Shown here: in pieces, positions 8,795 to 58,425 of the stretch
How positions within the stretch are numbered: position 1 is the stretch's first letter
How the letters are laid out: every line of letters begins with the position of its first letter
Source: Escherichia coli
GTDB taxonomy: Bacteria > Pseudomonadota > Gammaproteobacteria > Enterobacterales > Enterobacteriaceae
Assembly (NCBI RefSeq): GCF_017348835.2
Contig: NZ_CP071375.1
Length of the DNA: 64,000 nucleotides
Reading direction: 5' to 3' (one strand)
Made by a program: the position numbers and the translations under genes
Notes under the pieces: model-generated
What the model was told of the DNA's origin: nothing
What the model saw: only the letters and a program-made list of their open reading frames with translations
The model's database searches: none

Positions 8795-8921
8795 GATGTA
8801 TCCTGAAAAATTAAAGTACGCGGCGATTGTAGGGATTGCTCATCAGATGTCCAGATCTTGATGAATTCCTATTTGTGAGCTACGTCTGGACAGTAACTTG
8901 TTACAACCTGTAGCATCCACT

Positions 8922-9162
8922 TGCCGGTCCTGTGAGTTAATAGGGAATCCAGTGCGAATCTGGAGCTGACGCGCAGCGGTAAGGAAAGGTGCGATGATTG
9001 CGTTATGCGGACACTGCCATTCGGTGGGAAGTCATCATCTCTTAGTATCTTAGATACCCCTCCAAGCCCGAAGACCTGCCGGCCAACGTCGCATCTGGTT
9101 CTCATCATCGCGTAATATTGATGAAACCTGCGGCATCCTTCTTCTATTGTGGATGCTTTACA
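8922..9162 (+). promoter_or_regulatory. btuB leader containing the adenosylcobalamin (B12) riboswitch
   Basis: Leader reads GCCGGTCCTGTGAGTTAATAGGGAATCCAGTGCGAATCTGGAGCTGACGCGCAGCGGTAAGGAAAGGTGCGATGATTGCG...GCCGGCCAACGTCGCATCTGGTTC, the btuB B12 element; boundaries approximate. Confidence 0.85.
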
Positions 9163-12221: not shown

Positions 12222-13763
<1,542 letters not shown>

Positions 13764-13848
13764 CCTTAAAGAAGCGTTCTTTGTAGTGCTCACACAGATT
13801 GTCTGATAGAAAGTGAAAAGCAAGGCGTCTTGCGAAGCAGACTGATAC

Positions 13849-13924
13849 GTCCCCTTCGTCTAGAGGCCCAGGACACCGCCCTTTCACGGCGGTAACAGGG
13901 GTTCGAATCCCCTAGGGGACGCCA
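13849..13924 (+). tRNA. gltT: tRNA-Glu in the 16S-23S spacer
   Basis: GTCCCCTTCGTCTAGAGG...GGGGACGCCA, 76 nt. Confidence 0.95.
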
Positions 13925-14117
13925 CTTGCTGGTTTGTGAGTGAAAGTCACCTGCCTTAATATCTCAAAACTCATCTTCGGGTGATGTTTGAGATATTTGC
14001 TCTTTAAAAATCTGGATCAAGCTGAAAATTGAAACACTGAACAACGAGAGTTGTTCGTGAGTCTCTCAAATTTTCGCAACACGATGATGGATCGCAAGAA
14101 ACATCTTCGGGTTGTGA

Positions 14118-17020
<2,903 letters not shown>

Positions 17021-17114
17021 ACAACGCCGAAGGTGTTTTGGCGGATTGAGAGAAGATTTTCAGCCTGATACAGATTAGATTAACCGGCGGTAAGCGGGTT
17101 AATACAACAGAATT

Positions 17115-17234
17115 TGCCTGGCGGCCGTAGCGCGGTGGTCCCACCTGACCCCATGCCGAACTCAGAAGTGAAACGCCGTAGCGCCGATGGTAGTGTGGGG
17201 TCTCCCCATGCGAGAGTAGGGAACTGCCAGGCAT
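17115..17234 (+). rRNA. rrfB: 5S ribosomal RNA
   Basis: TGCCTGGCGGCCGTAGCGCGGTGG...GGAACTGCCAGGCAT, 120 nt. Confidence 0.96.
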
Positions 17235-26237: not shown

Positions 26238-26276
26238 GCCAACCCTTCCGGTTGCAGCCTGAGAAATCAGGCTGAT

Positions 26277-26310
26277 GGCTGGTGACTTTTTAGTCACCAG
26301 CCTTTTTGCG
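26277..26310 (+). terminator. rplL-rpoB intergenic attenuator hairpin
   Basis: GGCTGGTGACT-TTTTA-GTCACCAGCC followed by TTTTTGCG, preceded by a second hairpin CAGCCTGA-GAAA-TCAGGCTG. Confidence 0.8.
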
Positions 26311-33600: not shown

Positions 33601-34885
33601 CGAACTGAAACTGATCGACGAATTCGGTCGTACCAAAGAAAGCTACAAAGTACCTTACGGTGCGGTACTGGCAAAAGGCGATGGCGAACAGGTTGCTGGC
33701 GGCGAAACCGTTGCAAACTGGGACCCGCACACCATGCCGGTTATCACCGAAGTAAGCGGTTTTGTACGCTTTACTGACATGATCGACGGCCAGACCATTA
33801 CTCGTCAGACCGACGAACTGACCGGTCTGTCTTCGCTGGTGGTTCTGGATTCCGCAGAACGTACCGCAGGTGGTAAAGATCTGCGTCCGGCACTGAAAAT
33901 CGTTGATGCTCAGGGTAACGACGTTCTGATCCCAGGTACCGATATGCCTGCGCAGTACTTCCTGCCGGGTAAAGCGATTGTTCAGCTGGAAGATGGCGTA
34001 CAGATCAGCTCTGGTGACACCCTGGCGCGTATTCCGCAGGAATCCGGCGGTACCAAGGACATCACCGGTGGTCTGCCGCGCGTTGCGGACCTGTTCGAAG
34101 CACGTCGTCCGAAAGAGCCGGCAATCCTGGCTGAAATCAGCGGTATCGTTTCCTTCGGTAAAGAAACCAAAGGTAAACGTCGTCTGGTTATCACCCCGGT
34201 AGACGGTAGCGATCCGTACGAAGAGATGATTCCGAAATGGCGTCAGCTCAACGTGTTCGAAGGTGAACGTGTAGAACGTGGTGACGTAATTTCCGACGGT
34301 CCGGAAGCGCCGCACGACATTCTGCGTCTGCGTGGTGTTCATGCTGTGACTCGTTACATCGTTAACGAAGTACAGGACGTATACCGTCTGCAGGGCGTTA
34401 AGATTAACGATAAACACATCGAAGTTATCGTTCGTCAGATGCTGCGTAAAGCTACCATCGTTAACGCGGGCAGCTCCGACTTCCTGGAAGGCGAACAGGT
34501 TGAATACTCTCGCGTCAAGATCGCAAACCGCGAACTGGAAGCGAACGGCAAAGTGGGTGCAACTTACTCCCGCGATCTGCTGGGTATCACCAAAGCGTCT
34601 CTGGCAACCGAGTCCTTCATCTCCGCGGCATCGTTCCAGGAGACCACTCGCGTGCTGACCGAAGCAGCCGTTGCGGGCAAACGCGACGAACTGCGCGGCC
34701 TGAAAGAGAACGTTATCGTGGGTCGTCTGATCCCGGCAGGTACCGGTTACGCGTACCACCAGGATCGTATGCGTCGCCGTGCTGCGGGTGAAGCTCCGGC
34801 TGCACCGCAGGTGACTGCAGAAGACGCATCTGCCAGCCTGGCAGAACTGCTGAACGCAGGTCTGGGCGGTTCTGATAACGAGTAA
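30662..34885 (+). CDS. rpoC: RNA polymerase beta' subunit (1407 aa)
   Basis: GTG start, [48 protein letters not shown]; catalytic NADFDGD motif. Confidence 0.98.
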
Positions 34886-34906: not shown

Positions 34907-34933
34907 AAAAACCCGCTTCGGCGGGTTTTTTTA
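34907..34933 (+). terminator. rho-independent terminator of the rpoBC operon
   Basis: AAAAACCCGC-TTCG-GCGGGTTTTTTTAT. Confidence 0.9.
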
Positions 34934-35097
34934 TGGGGGGAGTTTAGGGAAAGAGCATTTGTCAGAATATTTAAGGAATTTCTGAATACTCATAATCAAT
35001 GTAGAGATGACTAATATCCTGAAACTGACTGAACTAATTGAGTCAAACTCGGCAAGGATTCGATACTATTCCTGTGTAACTTTCTTAAGGAACGAGA

Positions 35098-35627
35098 ATG
35101 AAACAGGAAGTGGAAAAGTGGCGACCTTTTGGACATCCGGATGGTGATATTCGTGATTTATCATTTCTTGATGCTCATCAGGCTGTCTACGTTCAGCATC
35201 ATGAGGGCTAGAGTATCGCTTTTGGGTTACCTACTCTCTTCACTGCTTCACAAAAGATTATGAACATCAGACGAACGAAGAAAAACAATCGTTAATGTAC
35301 CACGCGCCTAAAGAATCTCGTCCCTTCTGCCAGCACCGTTATAACTTAGCGCGCACACACTTAAAAAGAACCATTTTGGCGCTGCCAGAAAGCAATGTTA
35401 TTCATGCCGGGTATGGTAGCTATGCCGTGATTGAGGTGGACTTAGACGGAGGAGACAAGGCATTTTACTTTGTTGCGTTCAGGGCTTTCAGGGAAAAGAA
35501 AAAACTCCGTTTGCATGTAACTAGCGCTTACCCCATTTCTGAAAAACAGAAAGGTAAATCAGTGAAATTTTTCACCATTGCCTACAATTTATTGAGAAAT
35601 AAGCAGCTTCCTCAGCCCTCAAAATAA
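35098..35627 (+). pseudogene. yjaZ: htrC/yjaZ-like gene disrupted by a frameshift (N-terminal 37 codons 35098-35211; remainder open in another frame 35205-35627)
   Basis: ATG at 35098 with Shine-Dalgarno AAGGA stops at TAG 35209-35211 after 37 codons; a 140-codon frame continues to 35627 from 35205 with no start codon until 35295. Confidence 0.65.
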
Positions 35628-35628
35628 C

Positions 35629-35653
35629 AAAACCCACCTTAAGGTGGGTTTCG
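35629..35653 (+). terminator. putative terminator hairpin after yjaZ
   Basis: Palindrome CCCACCTT/AAGGTGGG followed by a short T-run. Confidence 0.45.
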
Positions 35654-35884
35654 CCAGAGATAATTCTCTGGTATTCAGAACGCCATTACCGGACTTTGCC
35701 TTGACCTTGCGAGAATCGCAGGTTGCGGGATGTCTGAATTTCTTCAGTCTGCTGCATCCTGGAAGATGAGAACATGTGTTCTTATTTTCGTCTCTATCAT
35801 AGTTGAGTATTTACTCTCTTACAATCAGATCTCTTTCATTGCTCAACAGGCGATGGCTTCAGACTTTGCATTACGGAATTTTTA

Positions 35885-36045
35885 AGAAAGGCAGGGCGAA
35901 ACGAGGAAGAAGCTTTTCGCCCTGGACAACATTCCTGCTGACGGCACTACCATAAAAAAACACAACGCTTTCAACAACCTTGCGTTTTTCATCTTCCGTA
36001 GCGGCTCGGAATAAATTTACGTTCTTACATTCCGTCTCATAGTCT
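35885..36045 (-). ncRNA. sroH: possible SroH-like small RNA in the yjaZ-thiH intergenic region / thiH 3' end
   Basis: Placed by analogy with the K-12 locus from memory; hairpin GGGCGAAA...TTTCGCCC at 35891-35925 could be its terminator on the minus strand; boundaries uncertain. Confidence 0.3.
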
Positions 36046-37170
36046 TTGCGAGGCGCGTCCCAGATAGCTGTCCCAGTCTTTCCATACCGGCTGCAAACCC
36101 TGAGCGGTTAACGCGGCAGCAACCGCTTCCGGTCTGCGATCGTCGTGCGGTGAGAACTGTTCCAGCTCGGGGTGATTGTCGGCATAGCCACCTGGCTGCG
36201 TTTTCGAAAAAGCGCTGACGTTATTAATTGCCAGCGGAATAACGCGATCGCGAAACCACGGTGATTCCCGCGTGGAGAGTGACAGTTCAATCTCCGGTGC
36301 AAGCAGTCGGAAGGCGCAGATGGTTTGCACTAACTGGCGTTCATCCATAATCGACGCAGGCTCAATGCCGCCAGTACACGGGCGCAGGCGCGGAAAGGAG
36401 ACAGAGTAACGGCTTTGCCAGTAATGCTGTTGCAGCCATAGCAAATGTTCGGCAACCATATAGCAGTCAACGCGCCAGTTGTCGGAAAGGCCAATTAGCG
36501 CGCCGAGGCCTATCTTATCAATCCCCGCACGCCCCAGCCGATCCGGCGTTTCCAGCCGCCAGAAGAAGTCCTGTTTTTTGCCTTTCAGATGATGGCGGGC
36601 ATAAGTCGCCTCGTGATATGTCTCCTGATAAACCATCACGCCATCCAGACCAAGCTGCTTTAACTCGGCGTATTCCGCCTCCGCGAGCGGTTGCACTTCT
36701 ATCTGTAGTGAAGAGAACTGTTCACGCAGGGCAGGGAGATGACGACGAAAGTAATCCATCCCCACTTTCGCCTGATGTTCACCAGTGACTAATAGCAGAT
36801 GTTCAAAGCCCATCTCCCGTATAGCGGCGCTTTCCTTGGCAATATCCGCTTCATCCAGCGTTTTGCGCTTGATGCGATTACTCATGGAAAATCCGCAGTA
36901 CGTGCAGTCGTTAGCGCAAAGATTGGAAAGATAAAGCGGGACGTAGAAACTAACTGTGTTGCCAAATCGCTGACGGGTCAGACGCTGCGCCCGTTGGGCC
37001 AGTTGTTCCAGATAGCCACTGGCGGCTGGCGATAACAGCGCCATCATATCGTCGCGGGTGAATTGCGAGGCATTTAGCGCCCGCTCTACGTCAACAGCCG
37101 TTTTGCCGTTGATACGCAGGCGGATGTCATCCCAGTCCAGTTGTCGCCAGCGATCGCTGAAGGTTTTCAT
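36037..37170 (-). CDS. thiH: 2-iminoacetate synthase, radical SAM (377 aa)
   Basis: Radical-SAM cysteine motif CANDCTYC; last gene of the thi operon. Confidence 0.92.
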
Positions 37171-38139: not shown

Positions 38140-38878
38140 TGCTTCCTCCGCATACCGGGCAACCACTGGCGCGGCGCAACGCCAGGCTGCGCCACTGGCT
38201 CGACTTACCGTCGAACAGTCGGAGTTCTCCCGCAGGCGTCTCTATACCGCTTAATAACTTAATGGCTTCCAGTGCCTGCAAAGTGCCCATAACCCCGACC
38301 ACCGGGCCAACCACGCCCGCCGTGCGGCAGTTGCGTTCTGGCTCCTGGTTATCTGGCCACAGGCAGCGGTAACACCCCTGCTCCCAGGGCGGCGTCAGTA
38401 CCATCAACTGACCGCCAAATCCGACCGCGCTGGCGGTGATAAGCGGCGTGTTGAGTGCCACGCAGGCGGCATTAATCTCCTGGCGAGTCGCCATATTGTC
38501 GGTACAGTCGAGCACCACATCGGCTTGTGCAACCGCATCTTTTAACGCCTCACCCGTTAACCGTTGTTGTAATGCTGTCAGTTGAATATCGGGATTCAAC
38601 TGTGTCAGTCGCTGATGGCTGACCTGCGATTTCGGGCGATCGATATCTTCAGTGGTAAAGAGGATTTGTCGTTGCAGATTGCTTAAATGCACATCGTCGT
38701 CATCTGCCAGTACCAGCGTCCCGACGCCAGCGCCCGCCAGGTATAGCGCAGCAGGTGTACCCAGCCCGCCAAGACCGATAATCAGCACCTGGCTGTCGAG
38801 CAGTTTTTGCTGCCCGTCAAGAGCGATATCGTCGAGCAGGATTTGGCGGCTATAACGCATAAAGTCACGGTCATTCAT
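38123..38878 (-). CDS. thiF: ThiS adenylyltransferase (251 aa)
   Basis: Starts [15 protein letters not shown]; nucleotide-binding GLGGLG; overlaps thiS start and thiE stop. Confidence 0.92.
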
Positions 38879-39506: not shown

Positions 39507-41404
<1,898 letters not shown>

Positions 41405-53421: not shown

Positions 53422-54963
<1,542 letters not shown>

Positions 54964-55048
54964 CCTTAAAGAAGCGTTCTTTGTAGTGCTCACACAGATT
55001 GTCTGATAGAAAGTGAAAAGCAAGGCGTCTTGCGAAGCAGACTGATAC

Positions 55049-55124
55049 GTCCCCTTCGTCTAGAGGCCCAGGACACCGCCCTTTCACGGCGGTAACAGGG
55101 GTTCGAATCCCCTAGGGGACGCCA
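55049..55124 (+). tRNA. gltV: tRNA-Glu in the 16S-23S spacer
   Basis: Same 76-nt tRNA-Glu sequence as at 13849-13924. Confidence 0.95.
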
Positions 55125-55308
55125 CTTGCTGGTTTGTGAGTGAAAGTCACCTGCCTTGATATCTCAAAACTCATCTTCGGGTGATGTTTGAGATATTTGC
55201 TCTTTAAAAATCTGGATCAAGCTGAAAATTGAAACACTGAACAATGAAAGTTGTTCGTGAGTCTCTCAAATTTTCGCAACTCTGAAGTGAAACATCTTCG
55301 GGTTGTGA

Positions 55309-58211
<2,903 letters not shown>

Positions 58212-58305
58212 ACAACGCCGAAGGTGTTTTGGCGGATTGAGAGAAGATTTTCAGCCTGATACAGATTAGATTAACCGGCGGTAAGCGGGTTAATACGACA
58301 GAATT

Positions 58306-58425
58306 TGCCTGGCGGCAGTAGCGCGGTGGTCCCACCTGACCCCATGCCGAACTCAGAAGTGAAACGCCGTAGCGCCGATGGTAGTGTGGGGTCTCCCCAT
58401 GCGAGAGTAGGGAACTGCCAGGCAT
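58306..58425 (+). rRNA. rrfE: 5S ribosomal RNA, second copy
   Basis: TGCCTGGCGGCAGTAGCGCGGTGG...GGAACTGCCAGGCAT, 120 nt; differs from the first copy at one position (GGCAGTAG vs GGCCGTAG). Confidence 0.96.

Follow-up and report, generated by a model that had tools for sequence, protein, structure and literature searches.

A hairpin flagged in an earlier note on a 64,000-nt stretch of the Escherichia coli chromosome (NCBI RefSeq assembly GCF_017348835.2, contig NZ_CP071375.1; this whole stretch is called the window below), in the gap between yjaZ and thiH, is probably the 3' stem-loop of an RNA of about 57 nt, conserved but so far unannotated, that is read in thiH sense (35942-35886, minus strand) and has its own promoter. 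The hairpin, hereafter hairpin B, is part of a two-hairpin element with covariation on one strand. It belongs to the E. coli core genome, and the small RNA SroH, with which it had been associated, is an accessory and separate neighbouring gene. The gap from the yjaZ stop (35627) to the thiH stop codon (TGA, 36039-36037, minus strand) measures 409 nt, in agreement with the earlier estimate of about 400 nt, and the flagged interval 35860-36045 is its thiH-proximal half. The features on which the argument depends are as follows.

35078-35627 (start approximate), plus strand: yjaZ, frameshifted in the window, with its stop ending at 35627
35629-35789, minus strand: sroH, Rfam RF00372, 190.6 bits (gathering threshold 80), positions 1-161 of 161
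35942-35886, minus strand: proposed RNA, 57 nt, GUCAGCAGGAAUGUUGUCCAGGGCGAAAAGCUUCUUCCUCGUUUCGCCCUGCCUUUC, minimum free energy -19.3 kcal/mol
35892-35924, minus strand: hairpin B (the flagged hairpin), recognized by inverted repeat, fold, and covariation
35925-35942, minus strand: hairpin A, GUCAGC (35942-35937), loop AGGAAU, GUUGUC (35930-35925)
35954-35949, minus strand: putative -10 TATGGT, 6 nt upstream of the mapped 5' end
35977-35972, minus strand: putative -35 TTGTTG, with a 17-nt spacer to the -10
35955-35990, minus strand: thiH-proximal hairpin with U7 (AAAAACGCAAGGUUGUUGAAAGCGUUGUGUUUUUUU), terminator-like, overlapping the putative promoter
36037-37170, minus strand: thiH, a 377-aa open reading frame (ORF) annotated as thiH in matching genomes, last gene of thiCEFSGH

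Conservation and covarying structure

The comparative set consisted of 80 thiH loci from species-representative Enterobacteriaceae genomes, and a covariance model was built from 58 distinct sequences. Exactly one match per locus was obtained in 63 of the 80 species loci, covering about 25 genera, and the window and the locus of a yjaZ-less strain (L003) were also matched once each. Scores across loci ranged from 38.7 to 76.8 bits, and all matches had the same offset and lay on the strand of thiH. The match in the window, at 35884-35943 on the minus strand (63.1 bits, E 7e-13), is the sole copy there. In every case the element follows the thiH stop at a distance of 90-125 nt and shares the strand of thiH; the usual order past thiH is a species-specific GC-rich hairpin with a T-run, TAnnnT, 6 nt, hairpin A, hairpin B, and a tail with the consensus GCC(U/C)(U/C)C.

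The arms of hairpin B, 35892-35901 (window strand, listed as CAGGGCGAAA) and 35915-35924 (listed as TTTCGCCCTG), form 10 bp that are 100% complementary, with 13 nt between them and G-C pairs at 6 of the 10 positions. Read on the minus strand, the hairpin consists of a 5' arm at 35924-35915 (listed as CAGGGCGAAA), the loop AGCUUCUUCCUCG at 35914-35902, which holds a conserved CUUCCUC at 35909-35903, and the 3' arm UUUCGCCCUG at 35901-35892. The string quoted for it in the earlier note, GGGCGAAACGAGGAAGAAGCTTTTCGCCC, sits at 35894-35922, at most 3 nt off the position 35891-35925 assigned there, and the inverted repeat is real. Single-sequence folding of the minus strand gave -15.0 kcal/mol (z score -2.1), which is modest relative to chance, and that of the plus strand gave -17.1 kcal/mol (z score -2.6); the mean stability in other genera is -15 kcal/mol. 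Hairpin B is held to be real because of its covariation across species, not because of its folding energy.

Hairpin A is imperfect in E. coli and has the form GUCAGC/GCUGAC in most genera. In alignment A2 it shows compensatory changes in 4 of its 6 pairs, with 92.2% of cells paired. Hairpin B shows them in 8 of 10 pairs, with 94.5% of cells paired among the 58 sequences, a percentage that is inflated because the sequences of alignment A2 were chosen by a filter requiring hairpin B to pair; its covariation and hairpin A are unaffected by this selection. Taken over both helices, 93.6% of cells in alignment A2 are paired, compared with 25-46% in controls with slid partners, and the compensatory changes, which involve 12 of 16 pairs and 104 cells, were reached by 0 of 500 shuffles on any measure. 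RNAalifold predicts both helices unaided. On the minus strand there are approximately 42 G.U cells compared with 2 A.C cells, and the functional strand is therefore the thiH-sense strand. The loop of hairpin B is 81% pyrimidine over 62 sequences, with CTTCCTC in 39 and CCTC in 50 of them.

A permissive Rfam 15 scan of 35800-36100 assigned the element to no family, the best scores being those of STnc240 (17.2 bits, gathering threshold 55, E 5.3) and a CRISPR repeat (13.1 bits), and in 20 other loci the element gave no Rfam match at gathering level.

GGA occurs within hairpin A in 42 of the 62 species, as AGGAA in E. coli and as ACGGAU in most, and the segment resembles a GGA-in-loop site of CsrA. 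A csrA51 mutant reportedly has a less stable thiH mRNA (PMC4844966); a link between CsrA and the GGA of hairpin A is speculative.

Mapped RNA ends in K-12

Published RNA ends were located using an offset of +4,154,698 from the window to MG1655 (U00096.3), which was set from sroH, and an offset of 1,977 nt between U00096.2 and U00096.3, which was confirmed by the sroH transcription start site (TSS) in the table of Romero et al. The reverse-strand TSS 'RVS_(III)-4188664' (U00096.2 4188662-4188664; Romero et al. 2014, PMC4681348) corresponds to 35941-35943 in the window and coincides with the start predicted from the promoter layout, G at 35942. Class III in that study denotes a leading edge in global RNA-seq without tobacco acid pyrophosphatase (TAP) enrichment (PMC4681348), so that a 5' triphosphate is not proven and a processing site is possible. 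The 5'-terminal hairpin of the RNA might hinder TAP-type assays.

The minus-strand Term-seq 3' end 4190584, classed as 'orphan' (Adams et al. 2021, PMC7815308, supplementary file 1), corresponds to 35886, 6 nt past the stem (...UUUCGCCCUG-CCUUUC). Its scores are 130,816 in LB at an optical density (OD) of 0.4, 527,736 in LB at OD 2.0, and 74,886 in M63, and those of the SroH 3' end are 533,884, 441,420, and 576,295, respectively (PMC7815308), the comparability and normalisation of scores between libraries being uncertain. Neither another 3' end nor a Rho-termination region is listed from thiH to hairpin B (PMC7815308). The 3' end at 35886 is weakest in thiamine-free medium and highest in stationary LB, which, with that reservation about the libraries, points away from thi operon mRNA as its main or sole source. 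The doubt that the earlier note had cast on a terminator role was too pessimistic in view of this strong RNA 3' end on the minus strand.

Neither the TSS data of Ettwiller (2016) nor the separate ROSE in vitro TSS data have an entry at the element, and those of Kim (2012) give no coordinates for its locus. An ORF inside the 57-nt RNA, beginning at an AUG in the loop of hairpin A, was considered and rejected because this AUG is not conserved (GGAAG and GGACG variants).

Promoter-like layout and the thiH-proximal hairpin

TAnnnT is found 24-27 nt ahead of hairpin B in 56 of 62 sequences (exactly 25 nt in 46), and in the remaining 6 it was judged by eye to be shifted 2-3 nt closer to hairpin B. 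A TTG precedes the -10 by exactly 17 nt in 41 of the 62 sequences and by 18 nt in 4 more; in the information profile its three positions peak at 1.6, 0.7, and 1.2 bits and the spacer is near 0 bits. Cedecea and Buttiauxella keep this layout without a preceding terminator-like hairpin, as read by eye from the sequence listing. The conserved arrangement TTG-17-TAnnnT-6-G, with a mapped 5' end at the predicted +1 (a class III TSS, not TAP-enriched), points to transcription of the RNA from a sigma-70-type promoter of its own, which would be nested in the thiH-proximal terminator-like hairpin and its U-run.

In E. coli the putative -35 is in the loop of the thiH-proximal hairpin and the U-run is the spacer. 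This hairpin folds on the minus strand only (-15.3 kcal/mol, z score -4.8; plus strand, -4.3 kcal/mol), and most genera have a canonical GC-rich stem with a T-run at the same position. No Term-seq 3' end is listed at the thiH-proximal hairpin in E. coli (PMC7815308), and transcripts of thiCEFSGH therefore probably read through as far as hairpin B, where operon mRNA and small RNA would have a common 3' end.

A CGnA(A) motif (1.1, 1.2, and 1.8 bits) was observed approximately 20 nt upstream of the putative -35, at -44 to -41 relative to the -10 in other species; in E. coli it is at about 35994-36010 on the minus strand, where it belongs to a short inverted repeat, UUCCG...CGGAA. Possible roles are those of a regulator site, an UP-like element, or a stem of the thiH 3' untranslated region.

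3'-end formation at hairpin B

As an intrinsic terminator, hairpin B has a 10-bp stem and a folding energy of -15 kcal/mol, but its loop is 13 nt long compared with the usual 3-8 nt. A simple terminator scan of the window did not call it, because the loop exceeds the 8-nt limit of the scan. The sequence that follows the stem is CCUUUCUU on the minus strand, with 5 U in 8 nt, and GGACAACA on the plus strand; as had been correctly remarked, neither is a clean U-tract. Across the 62 sequences, 54 have at most 3 U in the 8 nt past the stem and 6 have at least 5, and hairpin B is therefore not a canonical intrinsic terminator in most species. An RNA 3' end a few nucleotides past the stem is present in vivo (35886, three conditions), where termination and trimming look alike. 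The 3' end in E. coli may be formed by weak intrinsic termination; for most other genera, in which the tail is C/U-rich and U-poor, it seems likelier that termination occurs farther downstream and that exonucleases then trim the RNA back to the stable hairpin.

Proposed mechanism

By its composition, the pyrimidine-rich, anti-Shine-Dalgarno-like CUUCCUC loop might pair with the purine-rich ribosome-binding sites of target mRNAs; this is a guess, and our confidence in loop-mediated pairing is low. A search of the window for complements of the loop gave 40 matches compared with 16.5 expected, an excess that is uninformative because GAA-rich codons drive the matches and any strong Shine-Dalgarno sequence fits. 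The string GGAGGAAGC, which contains the complement of CUUCCUC, was seen at 38141-38151 and 39510-39520 (minus strand) in the thi operon; one of these sites is the thiS ribosome-binding site, according to the start codon given by the ORF translation, and the other is presumably near the thiE start. These occurrences are not evidence of targeting.

More broadly, and tentatively, the element could represent a new Enterobacteriaceae small RNA (sRNA) family located after thiH, with a promoter built into the thiH terminator and expression that would be free of thiamine control and possibly higher in stationary phase. The CUUCCUC loop would repress translation of targets without an Hfq-type U-tail, and the GGA-bearing 5' hairpin might engage CsrA. 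This whole picture is possible and is offered as a proposal well short of a conclusion.

SroH as a separate accessory neighbour

The following features belong to the sroH side of the gap.

35824-35796, minus strand: sigma-70-like sroH promoter TTGTAA-17-TATGAT, found by promoter scan, with its end 7 nt short of the 5' end that Rfam gives, 35789
35630-35651, minus strand: sroH terminator, U-rich and canonical
34938-35879 (approximate): accessory yjaZ-sroH block, an indel relative to strain WG5 that includes the sroH promoter

The earlier note had placed SroH, as a minus-strand RNA, at the 3' end of thiH and had tentatively tied the hairpin to it. The placement in the yjaZ-thiH gap and the strand hold (Rfam, MG1655 b4691); the coordinates are 35629-35789 and the link to the hairpin does not hold. 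The Rfam check for SroH that had been proposed returned no match in the flagged interval even at E<=10, and the only sroH match in the whole window is the one at 35629-35789 (190.6 bits). In the MG1655 annotation, sroH (b4691) occupies the corresponding position, immediately past the yjaZ stop. SroH is separated from the thiH stop by 247 nt, does not overlap 35860-36045, and has its 5' end 97 nt downstream of the mapped 3' end at 35886. It has its own Term-seq 3' end, 4190323, which corresponds to 35625 in the window (Adams et al. 2021, PMC7815308), and its own class I TSS at U00096.2 4188510-4188512 (Romero et al. 2014, PMC4681348).

Alignment with strain WG5 showed that approximately 34938-35879 is missing there and that 35880-36037 is kept nearly unchanged, so that on its thiH side the indel starts about 6 nt past the proposed RNA's 3' end. 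Of 5426 complete E. coli genomes, 5418 have the hairpin region and 3735 (about 69%) have sroH together with its promoter; in about 31% the yjaZ-sroH block is missing and the hairpin is still kept. That sroH has been lost from phylogroups B2 and D and from some Shigella was published previously (PMC3318445). When 20 representative loci, 19 of them element-carrying loci from outside E. coli, were scanned with Rfam, sroH was detected in E. coli only. The hairpin is core, and SroH is a separate, accessory gene beside it.

The hairpin inside sroH at 35655-35672, CCAGAGA-TAAT-TCTCTGG, is the exact reverse complement of the K-12 form (loop AATTAT compared with ATAATT), a hairpin-loop inversion of the template-switch type. 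The inverted-loop allele is rare; identity of at least 99% over sroH was found in 3 genomes only.

Alternative explanations

Several points weigh against an RNA with its own promoter. The E. coli hexamers are weak (TTGTTG 3/6, TATGGT 4/6) and lie under the threshold of the promoter scan, the conservation of the T-rich spacer and -10 could partly be that of a terminator U-tract, and the 5' end is assigned to class III. To these are added the selection filter behind alignment A2, the uncertain normalisation of the Term-seq scores, and the absence of the element from 17 of the 80 species loci. Loop pairing is a conjecture, complementarity to GAGGAAG being common to any strong Shine-Dalgarno sequence, and we know of no target, binding protein, or phenotype for the RNA. 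The weak hexamers and the lack of TAP enrichment would also suit an account in which hairpin B is only the terminator or 3' stabiliser of the thiCEFSGH mRNA and 35942 is an RNase site or a hairpin-protected decay intermediate, with no separate gene or promoter. We regard this account as rather unlikely. It is consistent with the constant position of the element behind thiH on the thiH strand, with a stable hairpin followed by a 3' end 6 nt downstream, as expected from a terminator or an exonuclease block, and with the regulated stability of the thiH mRNA, which is destabilised in csrA51 (PMC4844966). Against it stand the TTG-17-TAnnnT-6-G arrangement, which is conserved around an unconstrained spacer even in genera that by eye have no upstream terminator, and the canonical terminator that most genera have between thiH and the element, which puts the element beyond the operon's own terminator. 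Hairpin A, the loop, and the GCC(U/C)(U/C)C tail are conserved beyond the needs of a stabiliser, and thiamine-free medium gives the weakest signal for the 3' end.

Hairpin B could also have been part of the SroH transcript, of a longer SroH precursor, or of a regulatory element of SroH, given the common strand and intergenic region and an SroH start only 97 nt downstream of the 3' end at 35886. This explanation is refuted for practical purposes: the Rfam sroH model ends at 35789 and has no match in 35800-36100, sroH has a class I TSS and a promoter-like site of its own, a strong 3' end lies between it and hairpin B, about 31% of E. coli genomes have the hairpin without sroH, and sroH was confined to E. 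coli among the 20 representative loci. Hairpin B as a part of SroH was thus excluded both by Rfam, in gathering and permissive modes, and by co-occurrence in genomes. A plus-strand role, whether in terminating or blocking read-through from rpoC or yjaZ or as a protein-binding palindrome at the DNA level, is highly improbable. The site is between convergent transcription units and the fold of the plus strand has a slight advantage in stability (-17.1 kcal/mol, z score -2.6), but approximately 42 cells that are G.U on the minus strand would become A.C mismatches if read on the plus strand, and the reverse applies to 2 only; the plus strand lacks a U-tract and has no 3' end listed at the hairpin (PMC7815308), and rpoC already has a strong terminator at 34907-34930. 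A DNA palindrome would tolerate no such wobble asymmetry and would need no conserved asymmetric loop. Slightly less improbable is a 5' leader or cis-regulator of downstream genes on the same strand, such as the phosphotransferase system (PTS) IIB/IIA genes in Leclercia, Trabulsiella, Cedecea, Franconibacter, and Siccibacter, where a PTS IIB ORF in the same orientation begins about 130-200 nt past the element and hairpin B has no U-tract. E. coli without yjaZ-sroH has only the convergent rpoC terminator downstream, the PTS genes occur without the element in L056, L065, L071, L083, and L084, and the element follows thiH and not the gene content downstream of it, all of which makes a leader very unlikely. 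A small thiH-sense RNA with hairpin B at its 3' end remains the preferred reading.

Neighbouring genes and other features of the window

The longest ORF in the yjaZ-thiH gap has 51 aa and all ORFs there are short. This ORF, 35730-35885 on the plus strand, has a hydrophobic core, is antisense to the 5' part of sroH, and stops just short of the hairpin. It has no Pfam domain, the K-12 annotation has no such ORF, and it is probably spurious. The idea that it might be a type I toxin was dropped, as it falls in six sporadic 'hypothetical protein' clusters, confined to Escherichia and without a family; the earlier statement that the gap has no credible ORF is borne out.

The 3' end of rpoC is at 34885, and the terminator scan placed its own strong terminator at 34907-34930. 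In yjaZ a 10-bp deletion relative to K-12 at about 35198-35199 (AAAGAGCCTT absent) causes the frameshift, and in strain PE164, which is 100% identical, yjaZ is annotated as a 'frameshifted' pseudogene.

PTS IIB (MKNIVLCCAAGMSTS...) and IIA genes on the thiH strand fill the slot between thiH and rpoC in several genera, replacing yjaZ-sroH. The PTS IIB ORF was seen about 130-200 nt past the element in L038, L046, L059, L068, and L078. In the element-less loci L056, L065, L071, L083, and L084 the same PTS IIB start was seen, as DNA, downstream of thiH; in L083 and L084 the palindromic string TGTAACCGGTTTCA stands ahead of it.

Rfam matches elsewhere in the window are those expected for a K-12-like region.

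1176-1285: OxyS
8908-9097: cobalamin riboswitch, presumably of btuB
26242-26303: P26
41482-41582: thiamine pyrophosphate (TPP) riboswitch, presumably the thiC leader
12222-17232 and 53422-58423: two complete rRNA operons with StyR-44 elements and tRNAs

Novelty and significance

In the current MG1655 RefSeq record sroH is the sole annotation in the yjaZ-thiH gap, and in the sRNA table of Romero et al. SroH is directly followed by ECS163, with no entry for the element (PMC4681348). None of the papers searched, whether by sequence, by coordinates, or by thiH combined with sRNA, RIL-seq, Hfq, or Salmonella, describes the RNA; one paper naming thiH as a linkage marker was irrelevant to the element. 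The RNA is treated as a new candidate small RNA at an operon 3' end because it is absent from the MG1655 RefSeq record, the Romero table, Rfam 15, and the papers searched.

K-12 is the best-annotated bacterium, yet the two ends of this RNA sit uninterpreted in two datasets, one as a low-confidence TSS and the other as an 'orphan' 3' end. The comparative evidence, with two covarying helices and a promoter layout in about 25 genera, exceeds that available for many named sRNAs. If the reading is true, a core-genome sRNA would be added beside the thiamine operon, together with an example of a promoter nested within a terminator and a candidate for chaperone-independent or CsrA-linked regulation. 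The analysis also corrects an easy annotation error, in which any structure in the yjaZ-thiH gap is ascribed to SroH, and it shows SroH itself to be accessory while the neighbouring RNA is core.

Comparison with known systems

SroH (RF00372, b4691) is likewise a small non-coding RNA of the same intergenic region and strand, and a function is assigned to neither. It differs from the ~57-nt RNA in its length of 161 nt, its own promoter, its canonical U-rich terminator, and its accessory distribution, and the two have no similarity in sequence or structure.

Small RNAs that mask Shine-Dalgarno sequences with C/U-rich loops, such as RsaE/RoxS and the loops of RNAIII, are known mainly from Gram-positive bacteria (Firmicutes). 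The exposed pyrimidine-rich CUUCCUC loop, complementary to GAGGAAG, may be analogous to theirs, but there is no homology to the ~57-nt RNA.

With canonical intrinsic terminators hairpin B shares a GC-rich 10-bp stem, a 3' end 6 nt past the stem, and, in E. coli, 5 U in 8 nt. It differs from them in its 13-nt loop of conserved sequence, in having at most 3 U in 54 of 62 sequences, and in its GCC(U/C)(U/C)C tail. Because of the 13-nt loop and the lack of a U-tail in most species, binding of the ~57-nt RNA to Hfq in the usual manner is doubtful.

A further group consists of sRNAs derived from 3' untranslated regions that have their own promoter and share the 3' end of the parental mRNA, for example DapZ and MicL. 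The ~57-nt RNA appears analogous to these in its location at the 3' end of a biosynthetic operon, its conserved putative internal promoter, a 3' end that is probably common with the mRNA, and a conserved, unpaired stretch proposed as a seed. Unlike theirs, its putative promoter is not within the coding sequence; it lies past the stop codon, inside a terminator-like hairpin.

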